This document shows, in pieces, positions 1 to 8,367 of a stretch of DNA of 64,000 bases (the first letter of the stretch is position 1; every line of letters starts with the position of its first letter). The position numbers and the translations under genes are program-made. Under the pieces are notes generated by a model. The model made no database searches, had not been told where the DNA came from, and saw nothing but the letters and a program-made list of their open reading frames with translations. Source of the stretch: Podarcis muralis (taxonomy: Eukaryota); the NCBI RefSeq assembly GCF_964188315.1, contig NC_135668.1, positions 54,994,001 through 55,058,000 of the forward strand, given 5' to 3'.

Positions 1-1392
1 GGAGCCGTTTTTAAAGATGGCATCTGGTACCTCCCCGACAAGAGGCTCATAATGCCTAGACTATGGGTGCCCAAACACGTAAGAGTTCTACATCAGTGCA
101 CCCACTGGGGGAGGGATAAGCTTATAGACTCAGTCCAACGCTGCTGGTATGCCCCAGGGCTAGCCCTTGCCGCGAAGACAGCAGTCAAAAACTGCCACAC
201 CTGCCAAACCTTTAATCCAAAGCATACTGCCAGATGTCCGCCAGGCGCTCGACCGTGGGCTTTTGTTCCTTTTGAAAGTCTTCAAGTTGACTTTATAGAT
301 TTGCCCCCCTGCCAGGGCTACAAGCATGCTCTCGTCATTATTGATCAACTGACCGGATGGGTGGAATGCCTCCCAGCCCGGCGGGCTAATGCCCAAATGG
401 TCGCAAAGGCCCTACTACAGGACATAATACCACGCTTCGGAGTCCCACGGCACCTAGACAGCGACAGGGGCTCACATTTCACCTCTGAGATAGTACAGCA
501 AGTTGCTAGAGCTCTAGGGATAAAATGGAAACTGCACACTCCATACCATCCCCCATCATCAGGCCAGGTTGAAAGAATGAATCAACAGCTGAAATCACAA
601 CTAGGAAAACTCTGTAAAGATTCCGGAATCAAGTGGATCAATGCCCTCCCCCTAGTCTTACATAATCTCAGAGCATGCCCCCGAGGGAACCTGAATCTAT
701 CCCCCTATGAACTACTCTTTGGGAGACCCTCCCCCGTATATAACACCCAGTTCCCAACATCCGGGCTAGAAGTAGGCGAGTCAGAATTAACACGATATGT
801 GATACAGCTCCAGAGGCAACTCATTCGTCTCCACAGATATGCTGCCTCAAGCCAAAACATCCCCCTAGATGAAAACATCCACCCGTACCAACCAGGGGAC
901 TGGATACTAGCTAAAACCTACCACAAGGTACCCCTACAGCCCACCTGGGAGGGCCCCTACCAAGTACTTTTAACCACTCCAACTTCTGTTAAGGTAGCGG
1001 AAAAAACAGCCTGGTTGCATCACACCCGCTGTAAGCCGGCCTCGCCACCCGAACCCACTCCGGACGGGTCACCCTACCACATCCCAGGCCGACCAGCAGA
1101 CGACGACGATACCACTGAGGAGACCCAACAGACCGGACCAGATCGGGGCACGAATCGAGCCCAACAGACCGGACCAGATCGGGGCACGAATCGAGCCCAA
1201 CAGACCGGACCAGATCGGGGCACGAATCGAGCCCAACAGACCGGACCAGATCGGGGCACGAATCGAGCCCAACAGACCGGACCCGGCACACCCCACACAT
1301 CTGCACGTTGGACCTCTGAGATCATCCCAACAACCGACCAGGACGACCAACCCCCAATTCGCCTCAAACTTCGTAAAACACACGCAGTTTGA
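1..1392 (+). CDS. pol: ERV pol, 3' part (integrase); open from the window edge, gene start lies upstream of the window
   Basis: Frame +1 has no stop from 1 to TGA at 1390-1392. HHCC zinc finger (HQCTH...CHTC), catalytic D-D-E (QVDFIDL, LDSDRGSHF, SGQVERMN) and GPY/F module (WEGPYQVLLTTPTSVKV), as in class I (gamma/epsilon-like) retroviruses. Confidence 0.95.
   Translation, partial: GAVFKDGIWYLPDKRLIMPRLWVPKHVRVLHQCTHWGRDKLIDSVQRCWYAPGLALAAKTAVKNCHTCQTFNPKHTARCPPGARPWAFVPFESLQVDFIDLPPCQGYKHALVIIDQLTGWVECLPARRANAQMVAKALLQDIIPRFGVPRHLDSDRGSHFTSEIVQQVARALGIKWKLHTPYHPPSSGQVERMNQQLKSQLGKLCKDSGIKWINALPLVLHNLRACPRGNLNLSPYELLFGRPSPVYNTQFPTSGLEVGESELTRYVIQLQRQLIRLHRYAASSQNIPLDENIHPYQPGDWILAKTYHKVPLQPTWEGPYQVLLTTPTSVKVAEKTAWLHHTRCKPASPPEPTPDGSPYHIPGRPADDDDTTEETQQTGPDRGTNRAQQTGPDRGTNRAQQTGPDRGTNRAQQTGPDRGTNRAQQTGPGTPHTSARWTSEIIPTTDQDDQPPIRLKLRKTHAV
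1126..1284 (+). repeat. 36-bp coding tandem repeat (QQTGPDRGTNRA x4 plus partial) in the integrase C-terminal tail
   Basis: CAACAGACCGGACCAGATCGGGGCACGAATCGAGCC at 1126, 1162, 1198 and 1234 (identical), plus a 15-bp partial at 1270. Confidence 0.97.
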
Positions 1393-1574
1393 CAGCTCGA
1401 CAGTTTGACAGCTCCGCGTTTGACAGCTCGGCGTTTGACAGCTCGGCAGTTTGACAGCTCGGCAGTTTGACAGCTCGGCAGTTTGACAGCTCGGCAATTT
1501 GACAGCTCAGCAGTTTGACAGCTCAGCAGTTTGACAGCTCGGCAGTTTGACAGCTCGGCAGTTTGACACCTCCG
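1385..1574 (+). repeat. 15/16-bp tandem array (consensus CAGTTTGACAGCTCGG), 12 units, between pol and env
   Basis: 12 units counted directly; 11 carry TTTGACAGCTC. The first unit supplies the pol stop codon. Confidence 0.97.
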
Positions 1575-1617
1575 ACAGCTCCTCATCTTGACAACCGCGC
1601 TTCACACCACCTCAAAG

Positions 1618-3663
1618 ATGACAACTACCATACCCACCGTAATTATCCTCTCCATTACCTCCTCCCTTTCTCAACACTCCATAACAACACACAGCTCTTG
1701 TCCGGGATTACAAATGGAATACAAATATCTGGACTTTGGAATTGTTGACATGGTAAAAAGGGGGACACCAGACCGCCTAGGGGATTTTGACTTCTGCTTG
1801 CCCGAAACCCGCGTTCTCCTTCGACATGCCATACTGCCAATCCTCAACACTCACCAAACTTGGGAACTGTTTATTCGCTCGCCCACCTACACCCTACTGG
1901 GCAAGCTCACCCTTACCAAAGACGGACCTTGGAATCGAGCCCACTGCCACAATGGGTCTTATGTACTCTTTTCTGATGGCACACCCGAACAAACTCTGAA
2001 CTGGACACTACTAAACAATGGAGGCGGTGACTCAGTTTATACTGACCGAAACCACCCCACAGATCACCTAATTCATGGATTTTATTGCCAACGAGTAGAC
2101 ACTACCCCACGCCAAACCATCTTACAAGGAGTTTGCCTCCGACGGTACTGCTGCGTCTGGGACATCGGACTCGCCTCCGATTGGGACGGGAAAGCGTACC
2201 TCGAGGGCTGGCATTACTCCGTAGCACCACCAACGACATGGGACACTACCGGACCTCAAAGGTGCGGAGGCCTCACCACAAACCTCACCTACCTACTCCG
2301 CCAAGACCCCCTTCACCCCCCAGGCACCGCACCTCGACTAAGGGGGGAACTGTCGATATCCGAGAACTCTGAAAATAATGACTTTCTATCCGCTTGGCAT
2401 TCCAACACCTACGTGAAACTGATCTCCCAAATTGCAAAACAGACAACCACCACAGAGTGTTGGATCTGTGCCAACGCCCCCTCGCACCTCCACAGTGGCA
2501 TACCATTTCTTGGAGTACCTCTCACCCTACAACAACATCTCTCCGCTGACGTGCAATCCTGGAACCTGACTGCCGTGAATCTGACTCACCAGTACATCTA
2601 CTTAACTGGACCCACAACAGGCGACCTCTGCCGGAAATTCAGCGGGAACGACAAGGTCATAGGCGAGAGTACCTGTAAGTACACCATTGATATTTCTTTG
2701 AACGGGAAGATTACCTTATGGCACCGAGGCAACCCCTCTACCCAGCCCAGCCTCACATCTGCATGGAAACACGTCATGACCTTACCCGACTCCTGGGCAC
2801 CCTCCCCTGTCACCCAGTGTTTTTTCCGTACCTTCCTCACTGGGCGCATAGACTCATGCCTACAGGGCTTGTTCTGGGTTTGTGGCCACCGCGGCTATGT
2901 ATGGGCCAGCCCCCACTCCCGCGGCACCTGTTACCTCGGTCTGATCTTGCCTGGAGTCCGGGTCACCCAAGATCTACCCTCCGGAAGGAGGCGCAATAAA
3001 AGGGCAAAAGACTTATCGCAACTCTCCGATGTAGCAGCTAACAGTGAAACGTATGGCCGGGCTCTTTTCCCCGCGTATGGAGCCGGCTCCAACCACGTAG
3101 ACATCCTTAAACTAACAGACATCCTGTTAAATTTCATGGAAGAGTCCAATGCAGCTACCCAAGCTATCCTGACGGAGTTAACGGAAGTCAGGCAGACTTC
3201 GATTCAGAACCGCCTTGCTTTGGACTACGTTCTCGCCTCGACGGGAGGCGTTTGTGCCCTCGTCGGAACCGAGTGCTGCACACACGTGTCCGACCAAACC
3301 CTCAACATTACCGGACACCTTAATAACATCCACAAACTAGCGGACGGACTTAAAGATATCCAACATGAGGGACTCTCAGATATCCAGTTGTGGAGCTGGC
3401 TGCCTGGGTCTGGCTGGCTAAAACAACTCCTAGGAAACGGACTTCTGATCCTCATCACTGTAACCATCTGCATAGCTGTCTTCTGCTGCGCAGTCCACTG
3501 TTTCCCGATGTGCTGTCAAACTTGCGACTCTTGTCTCCCAACCCCTCGCCCGCGATCGGCCACCGTTTACAGACCACCAGCACCAGGGACCCAACCGAAC
3601 TGCATGGAAATGGGACCCCTGGAGGACTTCCAGAATCTGAACTCTAGGTATGACTTCTACTAA
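1618..3663 (+). CDS. env: ERV envelope glycoprotein, intact, 681 aa, gamma-type
   Basis: First ATG at 1618 in the 1588-3663 ORF. Hydrophobic N-terminus, CWIC (2458-2469), furin site RRRNKR (2986-3003), immunosuppressive-domain-like IQNRLALDYVLA, CX6CC (CALVGTECC), membrane anchor LLILITVTICIAVF. Confidence 0.95.
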   Translation: MTTTIPTVIILSITSSLSQHSITTHSSCPGLQMEYKYLDFGIVDMVKRGTPDRLGDFDFCLPETRVLLRHAILPILNTHQTWELFIRSPTYTLLGKLTLTKDGPWNRAHCHNGSYVLFSDGTPEQTLNWTLLNNGGGDSVYTDRNHPTDHLIHGFYCQRVDTTPRQTILQGVCLRRYCCVWDIGLASDWDGKAYLEGWHYSVAPPTTWDTTGPQRCGGLTTNLTYLLRQDPLHPPGTAPRLRGELSISENSENNDFLSAWHSNTYVKLISQIAKQTTTTECWICANAPSHLHSGIPFLGVPLTLQQHLSADVQSWNLTAVNLTHQYIYLTGPTTGDLCRKFSGNDKVIGESTCKYTIDISLNGKITLWHRGNPSTQPSLTSAWKHVMTLPDSWAPSPVTQCFFRTFLTGRIDSCLQGLFWVCGHRGYVWASPHSRGTCYLGLILPGVRVTQDLPSGRRRNKRAKDLSQLSDVAANSETYGRALFPAYGAGSNHVDILKLTDILLNFMEESNAATQAILTELTEVRQTSIQNRLALDYVLASTGGVCALVGTECCTHVSDQTLNITGHLNNIHKLADGLKDIQHEGLSDIQLWSWLPGSGWLKQLLGNGLLILITVTICIAVFCCAVHCFPMCCQTCDSCLPTPRPRSATVYRPPAPGTQPNCMEMGPLEDFQNLNSRYDFY

Positions 3664-3728: not shown

Positions 3729-4536
3729 TGTCGCCGGAAATCGCCCCCCCCCTCAGTAACGCGTACTGCACAAGCACCACATTCACATGTACACGTGTCC
3801 CCCCCCCTTTTTTTCCAGACCTAAGAGGTGCCCCTTTAGAGGGCCACCTCTTGAAAGCCTTCCGTAAATAAGGAAGTGCTGGTTTGACAGCTCTCCGCTC
3901 TAGCGCTCCACGCCGCCCTATCCTTATTGCGAGTAGACCGGACGACTGAACTCTAGGTCAACCAGCGACCGCGTCAACCAATCAGTGTTACCGAACAGCG
4001 CCCCTTGTGGCGGCCACGCTGGTACTGCAGGCTGCGAGCGTCTGTTCCCTCCGCTTTTGACAGCTCTCCATTCATTGTTTCCGAGTTCACTGAACCGTGA
4101 CTGATTTAATCAAAATGTTGCAAGTTGTTTCCGAGAAGGGAAAGTGCTTTGAACTTCAGTGACTGTATTCTTTACAAATTCACCAAAAATCAGCCGTACT
4201 ACGGATTCCCACCGGACCACTTTTATTACACTGCATATTACAAGGACTATCAAAGGGGGGTGGATTGGGATTGATCGGCCATAATCCTTGAACCGCGCAG
4301 TCACGTACCAAGCTGCCCTTCTCCGGATGGCGGGGCAACCTTGATAGCCATCGGGAGGGCTCAGACAGCATCCCATCAGAAACACAATAGACTGCATACG
4401 GTAGTGTATTCCACACGACTCCGAATAAAGGGCTCTGGCCGGACCCCCCTCAGGGGGCAGGAAGACTTCGCCCTTTCCTTTTGTTTCTGGGAATGACTTA
4501 TGAGGAGGGGGGAGAGGAGGTCACTGCCAGGTGACA
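3729..4536 (+). mobile_element. 3' LTR of the ERV (right boundary uncertain: 4536, 4723 or 4830)
   Basis: Starts TGTCGCC after the PPT; CCAAT near 3978; AATAAA at 4424-4429; GGTGACA at 4530-4536 is a near-inverted repeat of the start. The 5' LTR is outside the window, so this cannot be confirmed. Confidence 0.55.
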
Positions 4537-4830
4537 GGCTGCTCGGATTACCTGGAAACTCCTCCCCGACTCCTCCTGTTCCTTAATAAAATCATGATGT
4601 AAATATGATGTAATTTTGGGGGTGTAGTCAAGGGGATTAGTGGTTAATAAAAGTTAGGGTCTCCCATTGTTCAGGGCTTCCATTTTGTTTCACCTCGTGG
4701 ACGGTGGGAGCCCTGTCGCGACAGTCTTTTTCTTCAATAAAGACCAGGCCTACAGGCTGCTGTTTTGCTCTGAATTGCTTTGGTTGGTGTCTTTGTTTGT
4801 CCAAGGGAGCCCTCGGATTTTCCTGTAACA
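4537..4830 (+). mobile_element. LTR-like 3' segment (second LTR remnant or extension of the ERV LTR)
   Basis: TATA-like TTAATAAAAG near 4644, AATAAA near 4736, GT-rich tail, ends TGTAACA at 4830. Confidence 0.4.
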
Positions 4831-7369: not shown

Positions 7370-8367
7370 CCTTGGACCCTCGGGTTTCTTGACCCCTGGA
7401 CCGTCCGACTACATGAACTGAGATAGTCTTGACCTTAGGACTGGACTGGACCTTGTAAATGGACTCTGCCTCCAGGCCAGTTCCCCCCTGAGACTTGGCT
7501 GGTTGGCTCTGCAACAAAAACAAATGAATTGCTGCACTGCAATGTGCCTTTCCTTCTTATGTGCCTCCCAGTTGCTACGTGGCAAATATTTTTTATCCTT
7601 TCCAGAACAATGTGAGCCACAGAATGCCTGGAGGAACAGGAAGCCGCTGCTTCCCTCCAGAGACGGGTTGTGGGTTGTTCCCCTCAACCCCTCCAGTGTG
7701 GCCTGCTCTGACTGGCAGCAGCCCTCCGGGGTCTCCTCTAGCAGAGAACAGCCTTTCCCACCCCAGCTCCGAGAAGATAGAAAGACAAGGGTGAAACAGT
7801 TCTCAGGAATTCCTCTGGGCAGCGCCAGCTTCTGCAGGGTGAGGGAGTGCCAGCAAGCCGCCTGCCAGTCACCCAAGGCAGGCTGCAAAGGCAGAGTCCA
7901 TCCTCCTGCTCTGCCCGAATTCTCTGGCTGCCCGGGAGGAGGGAGGGGCTGGCTGGCTGGCTGGCATCCCGTGCTATTAACTGCAGTGGGAGACTCTGCA
8001 TCCGCAGCTGGCTGGGGGGACATTTTTATCTTTGGGCATTTGTCAGGCAACAGTATCCGCCATCGTGGTGGGCTTGGCCGGCTGGGCCGCATGCCGAGAC
8101 TCAGCGGAGCCCCTCAGCCCCCAGGCCCTGCTTCAGCAAACCCTAGCAGCCCCTGCCCCATGGAAGGGCTTGCCCTATGGAGAAGGGGCACTTGCCCAGC
8201 CTCCTGGACCCCCCCCCCTGCAAAGGAGCTCATCTTCCTCTCTTGGGCAGTGGGCTCTGTATCTGCAGTCTTCTAGGCTCAAGGCAGACCACTGCTTCTA
8301 CCAAATGGATGCATTTATTGGGTAAAGCATTCTTGATAGGGCCAGGGAAACCGACAGGCACTGAGGG

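Follow-up and report, generated by a model that had tools for sequence, protein, structure and literature searches.

The window (the whole 64,000-nucleotide stretch of Podarcis muralis DNA analyzed here) opens within the pol gene of an endogenous retrovirus (ERV). Two tandem repeats, designated array 1 and array 2, lie in the pol tail and between pol and env, respectively. The features that bear on them are listed below; lineages A and B are described in the next section.

1..1392, plus strand: 3' part of pol, encoding integrase (zinc finger, rve, MLVIN_C) and a tail with repeats; its stop is the TGA of array 2 unit 1
872..1617, plus strand: ATG-free zone (integrase CTD, tail, both arrays), with the last upstream ATG at 869; putative 5' leader of the env mRNA
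1124..1283, plus strand: array 1, a 36-bp repeat in 4.4 copies in the pol tail, reading QQTGPDRGTNRA; core CAACAGACCGGACC conserved at the nucleotide level in both lineages
1383..1574, plus strand: array 2, 12 units of 15-16 bp; core TTTGACAGCTC
1618..3663, plus strand: env ORF, 681 aa, gamma-type (CWIC; CX6CC), with a TLV_coat match; ATG at 1618
3729..4830, plus strand: 3' LTR, 99.9% identical to the 5' LTR over 1001 bp (BLAST value)
3883..3893, plus strand: U3 copy 1 of the array 2 core, directly after an invariant ATAAGGAAG; opposite-strand TGACAG in one sub-lineage
3933..3941, plus strand: U3 motif GTAGACCGG, invariant in 8/8 lineage-A LTR types; AGACCGG in common with array 1
4056..4066, plus strand: U3 copy 2 of the core; TTTGACAG invariant in 8/8 lineage-A LTR types

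As judged from its RT, capsid, integrase, and Env, the provirus is a class I gamma-like ERV. The best solved relatives of its RT were the p80 RT/RNase H structures 4hkq, 5dmq, and 4mh8 (XMRV/MLV) and the MMLV RT, which scored well above Pr125Pol (foamy) and HIV RT. The Gag_p30 and MLVIN_C domain matches fit this assignment, and the Env frame contains CWIC (CXXC, SU) and CALVGTECC (CX6CC, TM). Both gag and pol are spread over two frames in this copy. The near identity of its LTRs implies that the insertion is young. All Env relatives bearing names come from lacertid lizards (Podarcis and Zootoca). In L031 and L081, gag and pol are in frame with one stop between them, TGA-CAATTA, and the stop context is identical in L080 and L082, so that the array clade shares its gag stop with the array-less lineage (L031:6528-6536; L080, L081, L082). 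We take this stop to resemble a CARYYA-type readthrough context and not the MLV amber signal.

TRF placed array 2 at 1384-1572 (period 16, 11.9 copies, 93% matches). The core TTTGACAGCTC occurs exactly 11 times across 1388-1556, with a 12th copy at 1562 containing one mismatch, and exactly twice more at 3883-3893 and 4056-4066, both in U3 of the 3' LTR; in all, 16 core matches were found in the window compared to 1.71 expected from shuffles. Unit spacing is 16, 15, and 15 nt followed by eight steps of 16 nt, the unit TGAs occupy all three frames, and the pol frame closes at the TGA of unit 1 (1390-1392). These results confirm the description in the sequence-only reading of this DNA, namely a 12-unit array of about 16 bp with 11 exact 11-mers, two further 11-mers in the presumed LTR, and a TGA that drifts through all three frames.

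Several other structures were observed in and around these proviruses. The U3 of the very young 5' LTR of the window's provirus carries an 815-bp insertion (L031:1439-2253) that ends in inverted repeats (CAGTGTTTCCCAA) and seems to have duplicated 8 bp of its target, presumably a hAT-type DNA transposon. Primer-binding sites differ among lineage A, lineage B, and the array-less lineage (L031:3248, L081, L082, L080). The 5' leader of L045 contains a 28-bp repeat in 10 copies that are 99% identical (1093-1375) and a longer repeat of ~120 bp at 569-826. An rDNA cluster with 13 scored 18S copies lies at C14:55.80-56.07 Mb, ~0.8 Mb from the window.

Distribution of array 2 and conservation of its core

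A DNA search returned 49 matches, and a search with integrase, whose outcome does not depend on the array, returned 67 matches at at least 66% identity, 55 of which were examined. Together with three outgroups and one pol-less copy, these gave 59 loci, after three duplicates and two upstream stretches were dropped. Array 2 is present in 52 of the 59 loci, with 3-26 exact TGACAG each (median 12). The seven array-less loci are L046 and L060, where the pol-env junction is lost; L055 and L057, which form a separate lineage; and the three outgroups, at 40-43% identity. Array 2 occurs in 51/51 lineage A and B proviruses with an intact pol-env junction, including 30/30 integrase-defined lineage-A copies. 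Likewise, it is present in 12 of 16 further clade loci taken from the integrase list, where the remaining four are L046, L060, L055, and L057. The sequence-only reading would have been contradicted by family members with one unit; the copies carry 3-26. The array-less lineage consists of these two copies, and its placement has only 80% support in a quick tree; a tail of the L055 type is also present in a Zootoca Pol model.

Relative to the window's copy, lineage B is different at ~33% of residues in integrase and ~48% in Env, and the two LTRs cannot be aligned. Between lineages A and B, integrase identity is ~67%, and four-fold sites are 28-33% identical, i.e. saturated. Over this distance, TGACAGCT occurs at least three times in 22/22 sub-lineage representatives, as determined by an anchor-free k-mer count. 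Positions -2 to +8 of the core carry 1.0-2.0 bits (four of these positions served as the anchor) compared to 0.1-0.5 bits directly outside. Only YTGACAGCT(C) is kept, while spacers and periods turn over freely within 12-31 nt; periods are mostly 12, 13, 15, or 16 nt, with 23 and 31 nt in higher-order repeats. Among 688 units, each allowed one mismatch, deviations numbered 13 in TGACA, 17 at the following G, 18 at the C, and 87 at the T, and position -1 is only T or C. Because an 8-mer core is kept across a distance at which silent sites are saturated, these comparisons argue strongly against a neutral repeat and imply that the motif is under selection. In the best-supported reading, array 2 is a cis-element that this clade of lacertid gamma-like ERVs keeps by selection and whose copy number varies. 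The earlier description of an unstable VNTR stands for copy number, which varies from 3 to 26, and fails for the core, since this persists between lineages whose silent sites are saturated.

Elements that share the lineage-A leader and lack pol or env were also searched. Among 33 loci with this leader that are absent from the integrase list, 20 were fetched and none contains array 2 (0/20), which implies that the array is not a general packaging signal. Array 2 goes with env-coding proviruses. The 20 elements (L083-L102) are a ~7-kb non-autonomous family with the lineage-A leader and R-U5 and no long ORF; their interior is 4-5 kb of conserved non-coding sequence (mostly 84-92%) with two conserved strong acceptors. 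A second species appears to carry the array, as suggested by two Podarcis lilfordi protein models that read FDSSP three times and LTARR twice where array 2 would be translated (protein evidence only).

Other loci differ in composition. L002 and L003 match the window's copy (L001) at 97-100% in Env and the array flanks and at 79% in integrase DNA, and this pattern is that of recombination near the pol tail between sub-lineages. L041 has array 2 and env, and its upstream 3 kb are unrelated to pol. A second, larger ERV family gave ~75 near-identical integrase matches at 46%, and the one copy checked (L061) has no array.

Array 1 and the env leader

The array 1 repeat is 36-39 bp long, occurs in 2-7 copies across lineages, and is absent in the array-less lineage. 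Fixation at the third codon positions of CAA CAG ACC GGA is 94-100%. All representatives except L055 (21/22) have CAGACCGG as a recurring word. AGACCGG is also found in U3 of lineage A and in several lineage-B LTRs. Array 1 RNA folds better than shuffles (z -2.78), and a 4-bp stem is paired in 39/39 units, where the 39 tested were among 58 complete units from 88 distinct ones and first units without a 5' arm were excluded; covariation was not above shuffles (249 of 500). From these properties, array 1 could represent either a hairpin loop or another factor site. Of 142 additional protein representatives, only one, named from Podarcis, contains the repeat.

Both arrays lie in a region from which ATG is missing. 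In the integrase CTD, there are no ATGs in any frame compared to 17.4 expected in 10 lineage-A representatives and 14.3 expected in 8 lineage-B representatives; the representatives within each set are related to each other and the zone boundary was chosen post hoc, and the two lineages agree. The linker and post-repeat segments are likewise ATG-free, with one exception each. ATG counts are normal in the integrase core, and L055 has 4 ATGs compared to 4.8 expected. This pattern implies that the env mRNA likely begins near window 870-885, which would place array 2 inside the env leader.

In L055 and L057, the pol-env gap contains a long pyrimidine tract followed by TACAG, and L055 also has an ATG in a good Kozak context 10 nt further on. 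The L055 tract has 15/16 pyrimidines, 12 of which are T, whereas no unit of the window's array 2 reaches 12/16. By these sequence features, the gap contains a textbook env acceptor at the position where the array clade has array 2. We found no conserved strong acceptor in array-bearing copies, including the integrase linker and CTD. Of the 11 lineage-A-side representatives shown, 8 retain an acceptor-like site at window 836, which is not kept in lineage B. The leader donor GTGAGTA is kept in 47/47 and 16/16 pattern matches, and no spliced retrocopy was found among these 47 and 16 matches (the patterns end in a non-C base and do not cover other donor contexts). The array-less L057 has a lineage-A-like LTR (65% identity) inserted just inside env.

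Transcript data gave no splice joint. Contig runs X1, X4, X7, and X12, whose RNA status is a guess, contained no leader-to-env joint, and the depth of these contigs does not allow pol and env to be ranked. In raw runs X19 and X21-X23, of which 6-13% each was covered, no joints occurred and depth over the internal region was near zero. No junction at the unit AGs was seen in the eight runs, where raw-read depth is near zero at these positions. A contig in run X4 passes through several array 2 units into env. A joint at 7418-7578 corresponds to the unit series of another lineage.

TALE-factor sites and alternative functions of array 2

In a structural study, the canonical TGIF1 probe is ATTGACAGCTGTCAAT (reading ATTGACAGCT...) with an 8-bp footprint, and TGIF1 contacts TGACA in the major groove and the flanks through its N-terminal arm (PMC6158717). 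A ChIP motif common to MEIS1 and TGIF2, grCTGACAGCTg, is given in a preprint (bioRxiv 2025.11.09.687492). When compared to these published sequences, the conserved footprint of the units equals the TGIF1/MEIS site, units with C at position -1 match grCTGACAGCTg, and the T or C before TGACAG corresponds to the two published forms. The gradient of tolerated changes over the 688 units fits the TGIF1 structure, and we count it for binding by TALE homeodomain factors.

The U3 sites lend moderate support. TGACAG occurs 2-3 times per 900 bp compared to 0.3-0.5 expected in 8/8 LTRs from two unalignable LTR families, an excess that is modest for each LTR (matched by 0 to 14 of 150 shuffles); no TGACAG is present in the LTR of the array-less L055. 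Mis-called or missing LTR starts led us to leave out L069, L070, L072, L074, L040, and L057, and L055 and lineage B were re-cut. The U3 sites are on the plus strand in lineage A and mostly on the minus strand in lineage B, where they read TGACAGG/T instead of TGACAGCT and are not invariant. In the L043/L079 type, a lineage-A sub-lineage, site 1 is flipped to the opposite strand, which takes one substitution in this nearly palindromic motif. The support is only moderate because 51% of lineage-A U3 columns are invariant and because the flip is a single substitution. The ATAAGGAAG next to U3 copy 1 is ETS-like. About 2 kb upstream of the array-less provirus and outside its LTR (L080, reverse strand, 427-452), we observed a small cluster, TTTGACAGCT...TGACAGCTGTCA, with a full TGIF-type palindrome.

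We give a probability of about 0.5 to array 2 being a homotypic cluster of host TALE homeodomain sites (MEIS/TGIF/PKNOX) that acts on proviral DNA. Of the three functions put forward by the sequence-only reading, this one is the best supported, with the factors named from the motif match. Host TALE factors would bind array 2 on proviral DNA, making it an intragenic enhancer for env-coding proviruses; units would expand and contract by slippage or by template switching in reverse transcription, and selection would act on the number of sites and not on their spacing. Array 2 probably forms one module with array 1 of the pol tail. Activation would be the favored sign of the effect, since a replicating family keeps many copies. 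An enhancer role alone does not explain the missing strong acceptor.

A smaller but considerable chance falls to array 2 acting in RNA, as a multi-copy element of the env leader and pol 3' UTR to which a small RNA or an RNA-binding protein of the host would attach; such an element would govern export, stability, translation, or splice balance and would have replaced the proximal acceptor. Array 2 is always in sense orientation, starts at or just before the pol stop, and lies within the ATG-free leader in the slot of the L055/L057 acceptor; a sense-only array in a transcribed leader right behind the pol stop fits an RNA element equally well. Moreover, the gamma-CTE of MLV/XMRV pol requires at least four tandem copies, according to PMC4174252, and the neighboring array 1 has the folding and the paired stem described above. 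By contrast, array 2 itself folds worse than shuffles (z +2.0), has no Rfam family match, and has a core that differs from the AAGACA loop motif, array 1 covariation is at chance, and the U3 sites occur on both strands. Pairing with 18S rRNA was ruled out, as the host 18S contains no complement of at least 7 nt to array 2, and in the one microRNA match checked, AGCUGUCA equals nt 10-17 of miR-888, outside the seed. TGACA fits the m6A motif DRACH; clustering of m6A was rejected, since the D and H positions are fixed too and the footprint would be left unexplained.

It is improbable that the units are tandem modules of a branch point and an AG (YTGAC, then AG) that jointly make up the 3' splice site of env. 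Only T or C occurs at position -1, in line with the branch-point consensus yUnAy, the leader donor is kept, a conserved strong acceptor was not found at other positions, and some long spacers are C-rich. However, the C-T after the AG is conserved (94% and 89%), where acceptors favor G, the spacers are not T-rich, and A at -4 and G at -5 are fixed. The avoidance of ATG begins ~500 nt upstream of array 2, which would be pointless for an exon starting in the array, and the eight runs, of thin coverage, gave no leader-to-array joint, while the X4 contig reads through units into env. The tandem splice acceptors of the sequence-only reading are poorly supported: T-G-A fixed at -6 to -4 and C-T at +1/+2 are not an acceptor-type constraint.

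Neutral slippage of a VNTR that was seeded by the pol stop context and homogenized by recombination is very improbable. Copy numbers of 3-26, lineage-specific higher-order repeats, and the repeat-prone nature of the element, which also has the 28-bp leader repeat, would be expected from slippage; the core is nonetheless unchanged across saturated lineages next to spacer bases of 0.1-0.5 bits, and the array persists in every examined copy whose junction is intact. This explanation appears largely refuted already by core conservation. We consider least probable of all that array 2 is kept as a three-frame stop block or as a leaky stop yielding a Pol-Env fusion. Stops in all three frames, noted in the sequence-only reading for the window's array, are real in 51/52 arrays, but three stops suffice, TAA or TAG never substitutes for TGA, and no upstream ATG needs a stop; as a function the block is poorly supported, and the stops appear to be a by-product of the TGA inside the motif. 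The TGA-CAG-CT context resembles the clade's gag stop TGA-CAATTA, itself similar to a known readthrough context, but its sixth base is C and not A. Pol-Env readthrough was ruled out, because the env frame is random relative to pol (20, 14, and 17).

Regulatory design and comparison with known retroviral elements

The TALE-site reading can be extended to a broader proposal, which is speculative and, taken as a whole, unlikely. The clade would have given up the classical env acceptor and would express env through an expandable two-array module (YAGACCGG and TGACAGCT repeats) that multimerizes two motifs of its own U3 into an internal TALE-driven promoter-enhancer, where site number would be a heritable dial on env or provirus output. 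The genome holds a natural allelic series for such a dial, in which site number runs from 3 to 26 over dozens of young copies and which includes a sister lineage lacking the array as well as env-less derivatives. If the proposal is true, each insertion would bring a dense MEIS/TGIF cluster into the host genome.

Related elements are known from other retroviruses. As reported in PMC3505963, the HIV-1 5' LTR contains a functional Meis site, TGACAG, that is bound by Meis1/PBX1 and represses via Sin3A. This site has the hexamer of array 2 and is likewise retroviral; it differs in being one repressive site in U3, whereas the lizard clade has 3-26 between pol and env in addition to U3 copies. A single TGACAG represses in HIV-1, as reported there, so the effect of array 2 may also be repressive. 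HIV-1 intragenic regulatory elements drive LTR-independent env/nef transcripts, according to PMC8746790. These elements, the foamy-virus internal promoter, and the HTLV-1 intragenic enhancer are cis-regulatory DNA inside the provirus near env, as proposed for array 2. They are single, composite, and in coding sequence, whereas array 2 is homotypic, variable in length, and in a non-coding gap.

Among elements that act in RNA, the gamma-CTE and pol segments of MLV/XMRV are gamma-type pol cis elements whose activity grows with tandem copies, as given in PMC4174252. In RNA, the gamma-CTE folds into a stem-loop that has AAGACA in the loop, whereas array 2 has no structure, has another core, and is naturally multimerized. 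HEMO/ERVMER34-1 env is transcribed from a CpG-rich promoter, as given in PMC8978518. The likeness lies in env expressed from a CpG-rich region and not by the usual route; CpG o/e is 0.8-1.1 in many of the arrays and spans 0.31-1.1 overall. HEMO/ERVMER34-1 is a domesticated single gene with a cellular CpG island and a lost LTR, whereas the family here is young and multi-copy with LTRs and a donor.

In the literature searched, subscription papers, supplements, and Repbase/Dfam notes excepted, we found no description of an array that repeats one motif between pol and env and is conserved yet variable in length. Intragenic retroviral elements (PMC8746790) and Meis sites in an LTR were already known; new here are the nucleotide-conserved array 1 in the pol tail and the ATG-free zone from the integrase CTD to env. 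Neither array 1 nor the env acceptor of the sister lineage figures in the sequence-only reading.

Unstable U3 repeats are also well known. Tandem enhancer repeats occur in the U3 of ERV9 (40-bp units), PERV (39-bp), MLV (75-bp), and HTLV-1 (21-bp), and like array 2 they are unstable and multiply transcription-factor sites. They differ in lying in the LTR, whereas array 2 is internal, with one short motif per unit and free spacing. In simple retroviruses, enhancer repeats are normally confined to the LTR and env is expressed by one splice. An internal, freely expanding array of a host-factor motif that takes the place of the env acceptor would be a different regulatory design.
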